DNA of 64,000 nucleotides. Source: an uncultured Candidatus Binatia bacterium. GTDB lineage: Bacteria > Desulfobacterota > Binatia > UBA9968 > JAJDTQ01. The notes under the pieces are model-generated. The model was not told where the DNA came from. It was given only the letters and a program-made list of their open reading frames with translations, and did no database searches. Both the position numbers and the translations under genes were made by a program. Every line of letters begins with the position of its first letter. Within the stretch, counting starts at the first letter, position 1. Shown here in pieces: positions 53,696 to 58,876 of this stretch. The stretch is from assembly GCA_965204235.1 (NCBI GenBank), contig OZ241979.1, positions 3,109,902 to 3,173,901 of the forward strand, read 5' to 3'.

Positions 53696-54494
53696 AATGG
53701 GCAGCTTCGAACAAGCCTTCAGCGATACCGAGAGGGCCGCGAAATCGACACTGGATTCGGCCGGGGAATTGATCCGGCTGGCCAAGCAGTTGCAGAAGGC
53801 GTCCAGGGAAGGGAACCTCGCCGCCATGAAAAGGGTCCAGGGGAGACTCGACGACGCGATGGGGTCCCTGGGGCAGACGGTGGCCAACGCGGTCCAGGCC
53901 TGGCCGTTCCGGGAGGGCGAGGAAGAGCAGTACCTCAGGGACGGATATTCGGCCGAGTTGCGCCGCATCGCCTCGGAGCAAGGACTGGACATGCACGAGC
54001 GGGACGACCGGCTGATCTCCCACCCCTCCGTGGTGCGCATCCTGCCCGGCGAACGCGCGGTCAGGGTCGACAAGAAGAAAGTATCCTCCATCAGACCGTC
54101 CCACTTGGCGGACGTCCTGTTGAAGAACCAGGAGAAGCCCGGCCGCTACCAGTCGGGCGCTTTCCTCGAATCCCTCTACGCCGTGTACTCGGATATCGTC
54201 AAGGAAGAGAATCCGGACCGCCTGGTGAGAATCGCGGTGCGGGTCGTGCCCCTGGAAAGGATCTACCGGCTGTTCACCTCCTTGCCCGGCAGTAGCCGGG
54301 ACTACGACCGCACGGACTTCGCCAGGGACCTGTATATCCTGGATACGAAAGGACCCAAGCGCACGAAACAGGGCGCGGAGGTCTCCTTCCCGTCGTCCAC
54401 CGGCACACGGCGCTCGAAGGGAGTGTTTTCCTTCGTCGGACCGGATGGCCGCGACGTCCAGTACTACGGACTCCGGTTTACCGAGGGCGGCTGA
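53696..54494 (+). CDS. hypothetical protein, gene 1 of a four-gene SNF2-helicase operon
   Basis: ATG at 53696 with an AGGAG RBS 6 nt upstream. The ORF-track N-terminal extension is antisense to the VOC gene. 266 aa, α-helical and charged N-terminal half. No motif recognised. Confidence 0.55.
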
Positions 54495-55453
54495 TGGCGA
54501 ACCGCATCCCTCTGCGAGACTGGCTGCAATACATGGACGACGAGTACCTGTCCGCCTTCGTCAGGGACGGCGGCGCCTCCGTCAAGTTCGCCGTCACCGC
54601 GGACGAGTTGAAACCCGCCTTGCACGAAGCCGTAGCCGAGCGTTGCCGGAAGTTGGACTACGTTTTCGCGACCTTGGACGCCGCGGCCATGCGAGCGCAC
54701 ATGCCGCAGGACCTATTCTTCGGGCTGGCTCGCCAGATCGACTGGCGGCGCCTGGCCCGGCGGCTGATCCTGCGGCTGGCGGGCGACAAGGGTTACAAGG
54801 TCGAAGGCGTGGACCCCGGAGCGTCCGGCAACGTCTTTGCCGCGGTGGCCGACCGCAACGCCATCGACTTGCAGTTCTTCCTTCAGGACATCCGCCCGGA
54901 AATACAGCAGCGCGTCTTCAAGAACCGGGGGATGGCCAGGGACTTCCGAGTGGCCATGAGTCAACTCTGCCTCATGGAGAACACTCGCGACCGCGGCGAG
55001 TACGACGGCCAGCCCGTACTGGAGTGGCTGACCGGCGCCAACACGCGGGTCAGCAGCGTACGTCCCTTTTCCATCTACACCGGCATCCACCGCACCACCG
55101 CCCGGTACTTCATCGAATCCGCCCTCCACTGGGTCCGTCTGGCAGGGTATGCCGGGACCGTCGTCCTGCTGGACAACTCCCGAGTCACCCTGGCCCGCAA
55201 CCCCAGGGACGGCAAGCAGTACTACACCCGGGCCATGGCCATGGACCACTACGAACTGCTGCGCGAGTTCATCGACGACATCGACCGGTTGTCGGGAACC
55301 CTCCTGGTGGTGGTCGCCAACTCCGAATTCGTGGACGAAAGCGCCGGGTCCAGAGGCTATGGCATCTACCAGGCCCTGCGCACCAGGATCATGGACGACG
55401 TTCGAGACCGGAACCTGGTCAACCCCGTCGCTTCCCTCGTGCGATTGTCCTGA
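54494..55453 (+). CDS. hypothetical protein, gene 2 of the operon (ATGA-coupled to gene 1)
   Basis: The TGA of gene 1 and the ATG of gene 2 overlap at 54492–54496. 319 aa, no recognised motif. Confidence 0.55.
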   Translation: MANRIPLRDWLQYMDDEYLSAFVRDGGASVKFAVTADELKPALHEAVAERCRKLDYVFATLDAAAMRAHMPQDLFFGLARQIDWRRLARRLILRLAGDKGYKVEGVDPGASGNVFAAVADRNAIDLQFFLQDIRPEIQQRVFKNRGMARDFRVAMSQLCLMENTRDRGEYDGQPVLEWLTGANTRVSSVRPFSIYTGIHRTTARYFIESALHWVRLAGYAGTVVLLDNSRVTLARNPRDGKQYYTRAMAMDHYELLREFIDDIDRLSGTLLVVVANSEFVDESAGSRGYGIYQALRTRIMDDVRDRNLVNPVASLVRLS

Positions 55454-55468
55454 AGGGAGCTGCTCGTC

Positions 55469-56740: not shown

Positions 56741-56776
56741 CAGGCGGCCGTCCCTTGCTCCGGAGGGTATGCTGTA

Positions 56777-58876
56777 TTGCCGATCCCTTTCCACGACCTG
56801 AGCGCGGAGAGCACCGGCTCCGGCGCCATCGGCTGGCTGCGGTTCGTCGAGGAGAGCGGCGGCGAGGGCATGCGGGCTGCGCTGTTCCAGACATCGGACC
56901 GGGGCGAGCCCCTCGCCTTCTGCTTCAGCCGCACGGAACGGCGCGAGACCGCGGGGAAACGGGAAACCGTCGAGCCAGCCCTCGTGTCGTCCCTCGCCAA
57001 ATCGCTGTTCGGAGCCGCCGAACCGCCGCCGGTACTGATCCTGGCTCTGGCCGACGAGGTGCCGGAGGGTGCGTTCCGCGATGGAATCCGGGTGGGGCTG
57101 CCCCTCTGCCGTATCGGCACGGAGCGGCTCCAACTCCATACCCGACCGGCCCGCGGCGGCCCGGCCAACGGGCGCTTCCGGTTGTTCTGGGAAGGAGAGC
57201 GCCAAGGCGACGAGACCCCGGCAGGCCGGCTCCTCGGTGAGATCATGGACCGGGGCGACCCTGTGGAACCTTTCGACCGAGCCGCCAGATGCCTGGACGA
57301 AGCCTTCGACGACGAGCGTGTCCGGGCCATGACGACGCTTCCCGGAATAGCCGCGGTCGTCAGCCTCTCTTCGCTGCCCAAACGCCCGGAGTACCCTGCC
57401 AACCGTGCTTCGGGGAACGGCCACGCCGTCCATGAGCCTCTGCCGGCCTTTCGGTCCGGCCTGACCCTGGCGGAGCGGCTGTGGGCGGTGCTCGCCGCGC
57501 CTCGACGACGGGACCCGGACGTCCGACTGCAATGGCCCGGGGAGTTGATGCCCTTCCAGCAGGAGGGTGTTCGGGCGCTGCTGGACAAACGCCAACTGTT
57601 GCTCGCCGACGACATGGGCCTGGGCAAGACGCTGCAGGCAATCGCTGCGTTGCGCATCCTCCGGGCGCGCGGGGAGGTCCGGGCGTGCCTGGTCGCGGCC
57701 CCCGCGGGGCTGTTGGACCAATGGCGGCGCGAGATCGAGAAATGGGCGCCGGAACTCTCCGCCATCGTCGTCCGCGGCCCCACGTCCGACCGCTCCTGGC
57801 AATGGAGAGCGGAGAAGGACGTCACCCTGGTCAGCTACGATACCCTGCGTTCGGACTTCGGCGGCAGCGCGCAATCCCCGGTGCGCCGCAGGACGTGGGA
57901 CGTGGTGGTGGCCGACGAGGCGCAGCGCATCAAGAACCGCAACGACACCAGCGACGCCCTGAAGGGGTTGCGGAGAGTGCGCTCCTGGGCATTGACCGGA
58001 ACGCCGGTGGAGAACCACGAGGAGGAACTGGCCTCGATCCTGGAGTTCGTGGACCACGACGGCGCCGGACCCCCCAAGCAATACCGTCCAGGCGTGGAAT
58101 TGCGATGGCGGCACGGCGAACTGCAACTTCGACGCAAGAAGGGCGACGTCCTGGAAGACCTTCCCCCCAAGCAGGTGACCAGGGTAACCATCGACCTCGG
58201 CCCCAGGCAGCGCAACAGCTATGACAAGGCCGAGCAGGAGGGGGTCATCTACCTCAGGTCGCTGGGAGCCGAGGTTCGCGTACGCCACGTGCTGGAGCTC
58301 ATCACCCGCTTGAAGCAGATATGCAACGCGGATTCCAAGACCGGGGAGTCCACCAAACTGGACGACATCAGGGACCGCCTGGAACAACTGGCGGCCCAGG
58401 GTCACAAGGCGCTGCTGTTCTCCCAGTACGTAAGCGACACGTCGGGGGTGCGCGCCGCAGCCAACCATCTGAAAGAATTCGCTCCGCTCACCATCACCGG
58501 CGATACGCCCCAGCGGGAGCGCACCGACGTCATCGAGCGGTTCAAGGCCCGCGACGAGCACAAGGCGCTGATCCTGTCGCTGCGCGCCGGCGGCCTGGGC
58601 CTGAACCTGCAAGAGGCGTCCTACGTCTTCCACCTGGACCGATGGTGGAACCCCGCGGTGGAAAGCCAGGCCGAGGACCGGAGTCACCGCATTGGCCAGA
58701 AGGTCAAGGTCAACGTCATCAAGTATTCCTGTTCCGGGACCATCGAGGAACGCATCGACGAGATCCTGGAGCGCAAGCAGGAACTGTTCGACGAGCTCAT
58801 CGACGACGTGTCGCTGGACTTGTCCGCCCGAATGAGCGACGAAGAACTCTTCGGCCTGTTCGGGCTGAAGCGTTAG
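56777..58876 (+). CDS. SNF2-family helicase (RapA/HepA-like core with a roughly 250-aa unknown N-terminal region), gene 4 of the operon
   Basis: Motif I …ADDMGLGKTLQAIAAL…. Motif II VVADEAQRIKN. C-terminal helicase motifs …LILSLRAGGLGLNLQEA…, …NPAVESQAEDRSHRIGQ…. Start uncertain: TTG at 56777 after GGAGGG, or ATG at 56870. Confidence 0.8.
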   Translation: MPIPFHDLSAESTGSGAIGWLRFVEESGGEGMRAALFQTSDRGEPLAFCFSRTERRETAGKRETVEPALVSSLAKSLFGAAEPPPVLILALADEVPEGAFRDGIRVGLPLCRIGTERLQLHTRPARGGPANGRFRLFWEGERQGDETPAGRLLGEIMDRGDPVEPFDRAARCLDEAFDDERVRAMTTLPGIAAVVSLSSLPKRPEYPANRASGNGHAVHEPLPAFRSGLTLAERLWAVLAAPRRRDPDVRLQWPGELMPFQQEGVRALLDKRQLLLADDMGLGKTLQAIAALRILRARGEVRACLVAAPAGLLDQWRREIEKWAPELSAIVVRGPTSDRSWQWRAEKDVTLVSYDTLRSDFGGSAQSPVRRRTWDVVVADEAQRIKNRNDTSDALKGLRRVRSWALTGTPVENHEEELASILEFVDHDGAGPPKQYRPGVELRWRHGELQLRRKKGDVLEDLPPKQVTRVTIDLGPRQRNSYDKAEQEGVIYLRSLGAEVRVRHVLELITRLKQICNADSKTGESTKLDDIRDRLEQLAAQGHKALLFSQYVSDTSGVRAAANHLKEFAPLTITGDTPQRERTDVIERFKARDEHKALILSLRAGGLGLNLQEASYVFHLDRWWNPAVESQAEDRSHRIGQKVKVNVIKYSCSGTIEERIDEILERKQELFDELIDDVSLDLSARMSDEELFGLFGLKR

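Follow-up and report, generated by a model that had tools for sequence, protein, structure and literature searches.

The window, that is, the whole 64,000-nt (nucleotide) stretch of contig OZ241979.1 analysed here (positions 3,109,902 to 3,173,901; uncultured Candidatus Binatia bacterium), carries an operon of four genes, g1 to g4, near its right-hand end. The conserved unit of this operon is g1-g2-g3, in which an unnamed protein (g1) is followed by two proteins with matches to the PF10923 family, one predicted to be a live ATPase (g3) and one predicted to be catalytically dead (g2). The helicase gene g4 is an exchangeable accessory and encodes an SNF2 motor whose N-terminal head is modelled with an RNase H fold, similar to that of endonuclease V (EndoV) and PIWI. 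On balance we consider it rather likely that the operon is a modification-independent, uncatalogued putative anti-phage or anti-plasmid cassette, in which an AAA+ heteromer together with g1 would load or activate a nuclease-helicase. The operon and its upstream region are laid out as follows (aa, amino acids; AF2, AlphaFold2).

52902-53333, - strand: VOC/glyoxalase gene, upstream of g1 and divergent
53334-53696, + strand: divergent intergenic region between the VOC gene (-) and g1, probable promoter region, with repeats and AGGAG
53697-54494, + strand: g1, 265 aa; AGGAG 6 nt 5' of the start (53686-53690)
54494-55453, + strand: g2, 319 aa; BrxD-like AAA+ protein, predicted to be catalytically dead
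55469-56740, + strand: g3, 423 aa; BrxD-like AAA+ ATPase of ORC/Cdc6 type
56777-58876, + strand: g4, 699 aa; TTG start
56777-57316, + strand: N-terminal domain of g4 (aa 1-180), RNase H-fold and EndoV/PIWI-like by AF2 and Foldseek
57317-57541, + strand: linker of g4 (aa 181-255), mostly low-confidence or disordered in the model, with one conserved helix, LTLAERLW
57542-58876, + strand: SNF2 double-stranded-DNA translocase core of g4 (aa 256-699), from Pfam, motifs and PDB relative

The four genes are a real, translationally coupled single operon. Orthologues with 50-92% amino-acid identity were found in unchanged order in 60-80 other genomes, and g1-g4 show the expected codon-position bias in a window with a G+C content of 0.66 and many shadow open reading frames (ORFs). 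The g1 stop and the g2 start have 1 nt in common (TGATG), the 15-nt spacer between g2 and g3 contains AGGGAG, and the 36-nt spacer between g3 and g4 contains GGAGGG. The TTG start of g4 is supported by the conserved N-terminus MPIPF. A 491-aa GTG ORF in the g1 frame was rejected as an artefact, because it overruns the opposite-strand VOC gene and all g1 orthologues begin with MxSFEQAF. An earlier note on this DNA had described four co-directional genes with the same two spacers and with 319, 423 and 699 aa for g2 to g4, all of which was borne out; its g1 of 266 aa from 53696 is one residue too long and starts at 53697. The coupling of g1 and g2 that it proposed holds, through TGATG and not through an ATGA overlap, and the VOC gene that it called convergent lies upstream of g1 and is divergent.

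The repeat-bearing intergenic region of the earlier note came down to two elements, both upstream of g1: an imperfect 20-nt palindrome (GGGCATCGACCCGGAAGCCG / CGGCTGCCGGGTCGAGGTCC) at 53525-53564 and an 11-nt tandem duplication, CACCATGGrCA (CACCATGGACA CACCATGGGCA), at 53624-53645. Together they could be a candidate operator. No sigma-70-like promoter was found in or around the operon, and terminator-like sites there were no more frequent than expected by chance. The only inverted repeat near the end of g4 (10-nt arms, 58823-58868) lies inside the coding end, and a 63-nt spacer (58877-58939) separates the g4 stop from the next gene. An Rfam scan of the window returned no RNA elements, and hydrophobic segments are absent from all four proteins.

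Linkage of the genes was followed by a pattern scan of 185,579 species genomes, with one genome per species, which gave 103 relatives. Eighty loci were kept, all of them in metagenome-assembled genomes of Binatia (best 92%), Dehalococcoidia and other Chloroflexota, Vicinamibacterales and other Acidobacteriota, Latescibacterota, Nitrospirales and Alphaproteobacteria. Results showed that g1, g2 and g3 were contiguous and co-directional in all 80 loci still holding the genes, with the 1-nt g1/g2 overlap kept in 71, and the trio was also kept in nine of nine divergent loci whose g1 is about 30% identical. A g4 gene follows the trio in about 60 loci, in about 40 of them as the fused EndoV-like SNF2 protein. 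In 17 loci, mostly Dehalococcoidia (for example L023, head 13095-13661 and helicase 13654-15270), the head has an ORF of its own (180 aa) that overlaps the start of the gene for a 538-aa helicase, and the LTLAERLW helix of the linker remains on the helicase side in these split versions. This natural fission indicates that the head is an autonomous module working with the motor. Neither helicase nor head was present within 20 kb in about 20 of the 80 loci. A constant alternative effector in the helicase-less loci was considered and rejected, because the genes downstream are unrelated (major facilitator superfamily transporter, solute-binding protein, dihydroorotate dehydrogenase, glycosyltransferase). 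The co-occurrence check suggested in the earlier note, which had treated the four genes as a unit, therefore upheld the trio and showed the helicase to be exchangeable or absent.

The divergent loci differ in what accompanies the trio. Two of them (L089 and L091) have an EndoV-like SNF2 partner, recognised by the hidden Markov model of the head at 2.4e-19 and 2.9e-79, respectively. Two others (L085 and L086) have an SNF2 partner and an extra 342-aa gene, which in L085 lies between g3 and the SNF2 gene (11013-12041) and whose product had no match in Pfam or PADLOC. In L087, L088 and L092, a 540-aa XPB/Rad25-type helicase is encoded downstream of the trio, and a gene for a 472-633-aa protein lies directly upstream, overlapping the g1 start (L087, 6030-7853; L088, 2-1903; L092, 6586-8004); these proteins share 49% mutual identity and had no Pfam or PADLOC match. 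The trios of L084 and L090 have no helicase. L084 shares a 7,265,713-bp Vicinamibacterales contig with L037, one of the 80 loci; the contig apparently carries two divergent trio copies about 1.6 Mb apart, both without an adjacent helicase.

All-against-all clustering of every ORF from 81 loci revealed no further shared gene beyond lineage-specific synteny; since no other gene is conserved across loci, the cassette is self-contained. Median between-phylum identity was 75% for the motor, 64% for g3, 63% for g2, 58% for g1 and 42% for the EndoV-like head, which by this lowest value is the fastest-evolving part of the operon. These between-phylum identities, together with unrelated flanks, indicate horizontal spread. 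Among the Binatia relatives the chromosomal region is loosely conserved, and the flanks are rearranged even within the class.

As a side observation, the range of hosts (Binatia, Dehalococcoidia, Latescibacterota, Vicinamibacterales, Nitrospirales, Caldilineaceae) is reminiscent of the symbiont communities of marine sponges; a sponge origin was not confirmed via sample identifiers. The only paper found to mention PF10923 reported it in sponge metagenomes, not in seawater, and attributed it to Pgl (PMC5099237).

Both AAA+ proteins exceeded the Pfam gathering threshold of PF10923 (BrxC_BrxD, formerly DUF2791; 22.2 bits), g3 with 60.6 bits and g2 with 42.6 bits over profile positions 142-331. The PADLOC BrxD model recognised them at 3.2e-14 (g3) and 3.4e-10 (g2), and the PADLOC model of Shango SngB matched both weakly and collinearly, at 16-28 bits (g3, 5.6e-6, 23.7 bits; g2, 8.5e-4). 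Their scores against the NCBIfam BrxD equivalog NF033438, 52 bits for g3 and 36 bits for g2, were far below its cut-off of 350, and BrxC matches to g3 were P-loop fragments only (13-18 bits). Judged by these profile matches, both proteins are members of the PF10923 superfamily and are not BrxD equivalogs. Both Walker motifs of g3, A (GDFGSGKSH, aa 66-74) and B (VVLLDE, aa 236-241), are intact and invariant among 16-77 orthologues. In g2, a deletion has removed the P-loop (Walker A), and the conserved Walker B motif has the sequence LLDN, not LLDE. We thus predict a live ATPase in g3 and a catalytically dead partner in g2. No PDB sequence relative was found for g3, and neither protein had a match in PHROGs. 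Where the earlier note saw two unknown proteins and a P-loop ATPase, g1 keeps the first description, having no library match, g2 proves to be a degenerate BrxD-like paralogue, and the ATPase is confirmed by the Walker motifs of g3.

The SNF2 helicase that the note had also proposed was equally evident in g4, with Pfam matches to SNF2-rel_dom (6.8e-44) and Helicase_C (1.1e-19). Both lobes of the SNF2 family are present, and motifs I (GLGKT, 281), II (DEAQ, 380), III (TGTP, 407) and VI (QAEDRSHRIGQ, 631) are intact. The best PDB relative of the motor is the Sulfolobus Snf2/Rad54 core (1z63, 1e-55), and no extra C-terminal domain follows the SNF2 core.

The head of g4, which had been left as an unknown N-terminal region, had no sequence-level match in Pfam (including EndoV and PIWI) and none in PHROGs. 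An AF2 model of residues 1-264, built from a 23-sequence alignment, reached a predicted local distance difference test score (pLDDT) of 73 and a predicted template modelling score of 0.71, with five concordant models. Foldseek against the PDB matched it to EndoV (4xpu, E 7.5e-5, probability 1.0; also 3goc, 6ozg and 3hd0), to the EndoV-like 2qh9 and to PIWI domains of long and short Argonautes (probability 0.9-1.0); EndoV and PIWI made up most of the top 50 matches. In the model, residues ~15-200 follow the strand-helix order of the RNase H fold, and the head would belong with EndoV and PIWI by its topology. It differs from them in its conserved set, E/D...DE...E plus three arginines (R22, R52, R168) and not the canonical D-E-D-H/D, and in being a domain of only ~180 aa fused to, or encoded beside, an SNF2 motor. 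The carboxylates are E/D25, D/E93, E94 and E164, with acidic residues kept at these positions in 55, 52, 62 and 61 of 63 orthologues, respectively; position 25 closes strand 1, positions 93-94 come after strand 4, and position 164 is in the helix that follows. An active nuclease in the head is plausible because an RNase H-type fold is modelled together with these kept carboxylates. A literature search on EndoV with SNF2 turned up no account of an SNF2 motor carrying an EndoV/PIWI-like domain.

The first gene, g1, encodes a basic protein (pI 9.3) and founds an uncharacterised protein family. It had no match in Pfam (E<=0.01), PADLOC, NCBIfam or PHROGs, and all 731 close homologues are labelled hypothetical. 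An exhaustive profile search yielded 786 clusters at 50% identity, 545 of them with E<=1e-10; essentially all of the 150 best-listed clusters are stand-alone proteins of ~260 aa, and a cluster look-up for family names returned 'hypothetical protein' only. Conserved motifs are FARDLY and PASTGTR. The best of five AF2 models (pLDDT 77.7; the other four, 45-65) suggests a helical hairpin at the N-terminus followed by an alpha/beta region. A fold search with it gave no match in PDB or BFVD, and a profile search of PDB sequences gave helical-bundle noise only, so that the fold searches advised in the earlier note identified the g4 head and left g1 without a match. A PD-(D/E)xK nuclease, prompted by D125...QxK147 and faint MutH matches, was rejected for g1 on two counts, a probability of 0.05-0.08 and the placement of the residues in the wrong secondary-structure elements.

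To assess membership in known systems, g1-g4 were scanned together with 10 neighbours against Pfam, PADLOC and NCBIfam. By these comparisons the operon fails as a member of BREX, Zorya, DISARM, Dpd, Hma/BREX-related (BR) systems and RapA, and of Shango by the absence of a TerB match in g1. In type 2 BREX, BrxD is a stand-alone AAA+ protein of ORC/Cdc6 type, tightly paired with the helicase BrxHI and proposed as its loader or activator (PMC12839542). The operon resembles this arrangement in the direct pairing of a stand-alone PF10923 ATPase with a superfamily 2 (SF2) helicase. It differs in that PglZ, the BrxX/PglX methyltransferase and BrxC/PglY were found neither in g1-g4 nor in the 10 neighbours and the operon has no PglW, in that the ATPase is duplicated into one live and one dead copy, in that the helicase is SNF2 or XPB-like and not Lhr/Ski2-like, and in the additional obligatory protein g1.

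Shango is similar: it too joins a BrxD-like ATPase and an SF2 helicase to a small protein without enzymatic function, and it has no methyltransferase. Millman et al. 2022 are said to have described its SngA as a TerB-domain protein. No TerB match was found in g1 (Pfam E<=0.01, PADLOC), and the operon has two ATPase paralogues, not one, and a helicase bearing an EndoV/PIWI-like domain. The SngC model was outside the best 25 matches of g4 and was marginal for the XPB-type variant (9.4e-6).

Other helicase systems matched g4 only at a distance, the PADLOC matches to ZorD, DpdE and DrmD covering the SNF2 core alone. The ZorD equivalog gave 146 bits against a cut-off of 1500, again over the core only, and neither the MotAB-like ZorA/ZorB nor ZorC or ZorE was found in the operon or its neighbours. 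DrmD equivalogs gave 68-78 bits against cut-offs of 610-950, with no DrmA, DrmB (DUF1998) or DrmM methyltransferase in the operon or neighbours, and the DpdE equivalog gave 62.5 bits against 500, with no dpd or tgt genes nearby. For Hma/BR, Pfam detected no DUF499 or methyltransferase in the operon. Effectors of BR/Hma and ZorD share a layout of nuclease fold plus SNF2, and in type 2 BR, where the nuclease is placed at the N-terminus, DUF3780 is present as an accompanying small stand-alone alpha+beta protein (PMC12839542). The operon is like BR/Hma in joining an ORC/Cdc6-type AAA+ ATPase to a nuclease-SNF2 fusion, with the putative nuclease N-terminal as in type 2 BR. Unlike BR/Hma, it has no methyltransferase and its ATPase is of BrxD type, not DUF499/BrxC type; the predicted nuclease fold is RNase H (EndoV/PIWI) and not PLD/HKD (PLD, phospholipase D), PD-(D/E)xK or Mrr as in BR/Hma and ZorD; and g1, without a Pfam match, is not DUF3780. 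The cassette was not described in any literature found by searches on PF10923/DUF2791, BrxD-like proteins and EndoV with SNF2. The library scans thus agree with the earlier note that the operon has no MotAB, PglZ or methyltransferase partner and corresponds to no named system. Its statement that BREX, Zorya and DISARM do not apply also stands, with the addition that the BREX-type PF10923 superfamily includes g2 and g3; the PADLOC search that it recommended returned BrxD and SngB for these two proteins and nothing for g1. The operon is best filed as a new variant on the BrxD-like ATPase/SF2 helicase pairing, with two unnamed protein families and what appears to be an undescribed EndoV/PIWI-like SNF2 architecture.

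The surroundings of the operon bear on its function. In the window, the interval 52766-52918, from the solute-binding-protein gene to the VOC gene, measures only ~150 nt. At this very place, 0.8 kb upstream of g1, a 98-99% nucleotide-identical strain (L081) carries a 3,989-bp insertion (G+C 0.57) with genes for a GmrSD type IV restriction enzyme, an N6/N4 methyltransferase and a protein of 151 aa. Three more relatives (L082, L083 and the 91%-identical L001) carry the methyltransferase, L001 together with the 151-aa gene. Because the GmrSD/methyltransferase insertion differs among close relatives, the operon borders a strain-variable defence hotspot, while the operon itself occupies the same chromosomal site in them. 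The N6/N4 methyltransferase, 1.5 kb upstream in close relatives, was considered as an operon component and rejected, because it is missing in the window, where the operon is intact, and is not conserved elsewhere.

Defence genes adjoin the operon in other lineages as well. The trios of L085 and L086 adjoin cas1, cas2 and cas4, that of L084 a methyltransferase-HNH fusion and an SNF2-Mrr gene, L064 a PLD-type restriction enzyme gene and L044 an AbiEii-like nucleotidyltransferase gene. Directly upstream of the L090 trio, four co-directional overlapping genes (1-7871) encode proteins of >503, 247, 1541 and 359 aa, the last with sub-threshold DUF2399 and JetD_C matches; this cluster may be a Wadjet-like system. 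These contexts favour defence to a moderate degree. The cassette also has traits typical of immune systems: it is self-contained and mobile, with a constant, sensor-like core, a swappable motor or nuclease, ATPases of a family so far met in defence systems only, and defence neighbours that are recurrent and not universal.

If the operon is a defence cassette, g2 and g3 would assemble into a heteromeric ATPase of ORC/Cdc6 type in which g2 is the non-catalytic partner, and the basic g1 would serve as an adaptor or DNA-binding subunit of this ATPase. The g1-g2-g3 complex may recognise foreign DNA or an abnormal DNA structure and, using ATP, could load or switch on an SF2 motor (g4 here), whereupon the EndoV/PIWI-like head of g4 would nick or cleave the tracked DNA. 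As the cassette contains no methyltransferase, discrimination between self and non-self would not proceed via system-encoded self-modification.

Several observations weigh against this explanation. The immediate neighbours in the window are metabolic (VOC, epimerase, amidohydrolases, solute-binding protein), the G+C content of the operon is that of its flanks, and for immune genes the conservation of the proteins is unusually high. Among 127 nearest neighbours at 32 loci, about eight matched defence models and about seven were transposases or integrases; these counts have no background control, so that enrichment of defence genes is not established. The EndoV/PIWI assignment comes from one AF2 model based on 23 sequences, with TM-scores of 0.3-0.5. 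The paralogy of g2 and g3 derives mainly from their shared Pfam match, because direct profile-profile comparison by hhalign was collinear but weak (probability 14%, E 0.0019). There is no recognisable fold or catalytic motif in g1, and g1 was not found in 72,556 plasmids, 50,697 phages or IMG/VR contigs. About a quarter of the loci have no adjacent helicase, and because such loci exist the loader model is incomplete and not the whole story.

The same conservation and host-like base composition, and the metabolic neighbours in the window and at most loci, would suit an accessory module for DNA repair or genome maintenance, in which the head senses damaged or deaminated bases or unusual structures, the SNF2 motor remodels or clears protein-DNA complexes and the AAA+ pair loads or regulates it. 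SNF2 motors such as Rad54 and RapA act in repair and transcription, and the closest structural relative of g4 is a Snf2/Rad54 core. Repair is further favoured by the fold that the head shares with endonuclease V, a repair nuclease, and by the positions of L089 near mfd and L091 beside dnaN. It is opposed by the patchy distribution, with so few relatives among all the species genomes scanned, and by contexts that are unrelated between phyla and a helicase module that is swapped or absent. No canonical repair partner is conserved across loci, defence genes recur beside the cassette, a strain-variable restriction/methyltransferase hotspot adjoins the operon, and PF10923 ATPases have so far been described in defence systems only (PMC12839542; PADLOC matches). 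We therefore regard a repair function as unlikely, though it keeps an appreciable share of the probability. The earlier note had put phage defence and DNA repair side by side; between the two we still infer, and the context moderately favours defence.

An ORC/Cdc6-type AAA+ protein plus a helicase is also the grammar of replication initiation, and the operon could be cargo that a mobile element uses for its own maintenance, replication or competition, for example as an ORC/Cdc6-like initiator with its helicase. Evident horizontal spread across phyla and the transposases or integrases among a few neighbours agree with such cargo. However, the cassette is not accompanied by any conserved integrase, transposase, relaxase or replication gene, nothing matched in the plasmid, phage and IMG/VR collections named above, SNF2 and XPB-type motors are not replicative helicases, and relatives keep the operon site while the neighbouring hotspot changes; this account is quite improbable. 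The alternative that the earlier note itself had raised, a housekeeping, transcription-associated RapA-like module of the core genome, could draw on the SNF2 family membership of g4 and on the loosely conserved chromosomal region in related Binatia. It is largely refuted and retains a very slight chance: the RapA equivalog gave 28.7 bits against a cut-off of 576, g4 has the EndoV-like head instead of the Tudor N-terminus of RapA and lacks the RapA C-terminal domains, and the cassette is rare and patchy, in a different context in each phylum and with flanks rearranged even inside Binatia.

Apart from the operon, two further loci lie at 8.7-41 kb of the window, one of CRISPR-Cas and one of DUF499/DUF1156/PLD-helicase type, and as context both count in favour of the defence reading.

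8691-11476: CRISPR array, period ~64 nt, repeat CTCCTAACCCCTCATGGGGAACGGTCAC
12153-13169, - strand: Cas1, beside the CRISPR array
13677-15659, - strand: Cas3-like DEAD helicase
16356-17525, - strand: Csc2
17393-20290, - strand: 965-aa protein, no Pfam match
25206-27875: PLD_Helicase (5e-228)
28847-30100: HEC-01A/AriA-like ABC ATPase, embedded in the DUF499 system
30285-33905: DUF1156 methyltransferase (9e-283)
34213-36399: Eco57I-like methyltransferase, embedded in the DUF499 system
36390-37445: unassigned 351-aa ORF, embedded in the DUF499 system
38058-41126: DUF499 (1e-216)

The CRISPR locus (8691-20290) looks like type I-D and lies in an island of lower G+C. The segment 25206-41126 is a complete Hma or 'type 2 BREX-related' system, clearly separate from the operon.

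If the defence reading is correct, the operon would represent a new architecture for the BrxD-like ATPase/SF2 helicase pairing of type 2 BREX and Shango. More tentatively, and with the odds against it, g1 and the live/dead BrxD-like pair may be the sensing and loading core of an unrecognised, modification-independent immune family with swappable SF2 motors, whose new EndoV/PIWI-like head may sense bases that are damaged, deaminated or modified, or the ends of nucleic acids, in invading DNA, and which may account for part of the metagenomic PF10923 signal attributed to Pgl/BREX. The compact version, three or four genes without a methyltransferase, should lend itself to reconstitution, and the pairing of a live with a dead ATPase, the head's fusion and fission and the SNF2-XPB swaps amount to a natural experiment on interacting parts. 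The g1 family, with its 786 clusters, and the 472-633-aa partner of the XPB variant are nameless in all libraries searched. Metagenomic matches to PF10923 should not by default be taken for BREX or Pgl, and an EndoV/PIWI-like head on an SNF2 motor would extend the PIWI/EndoV fold to another immune context.

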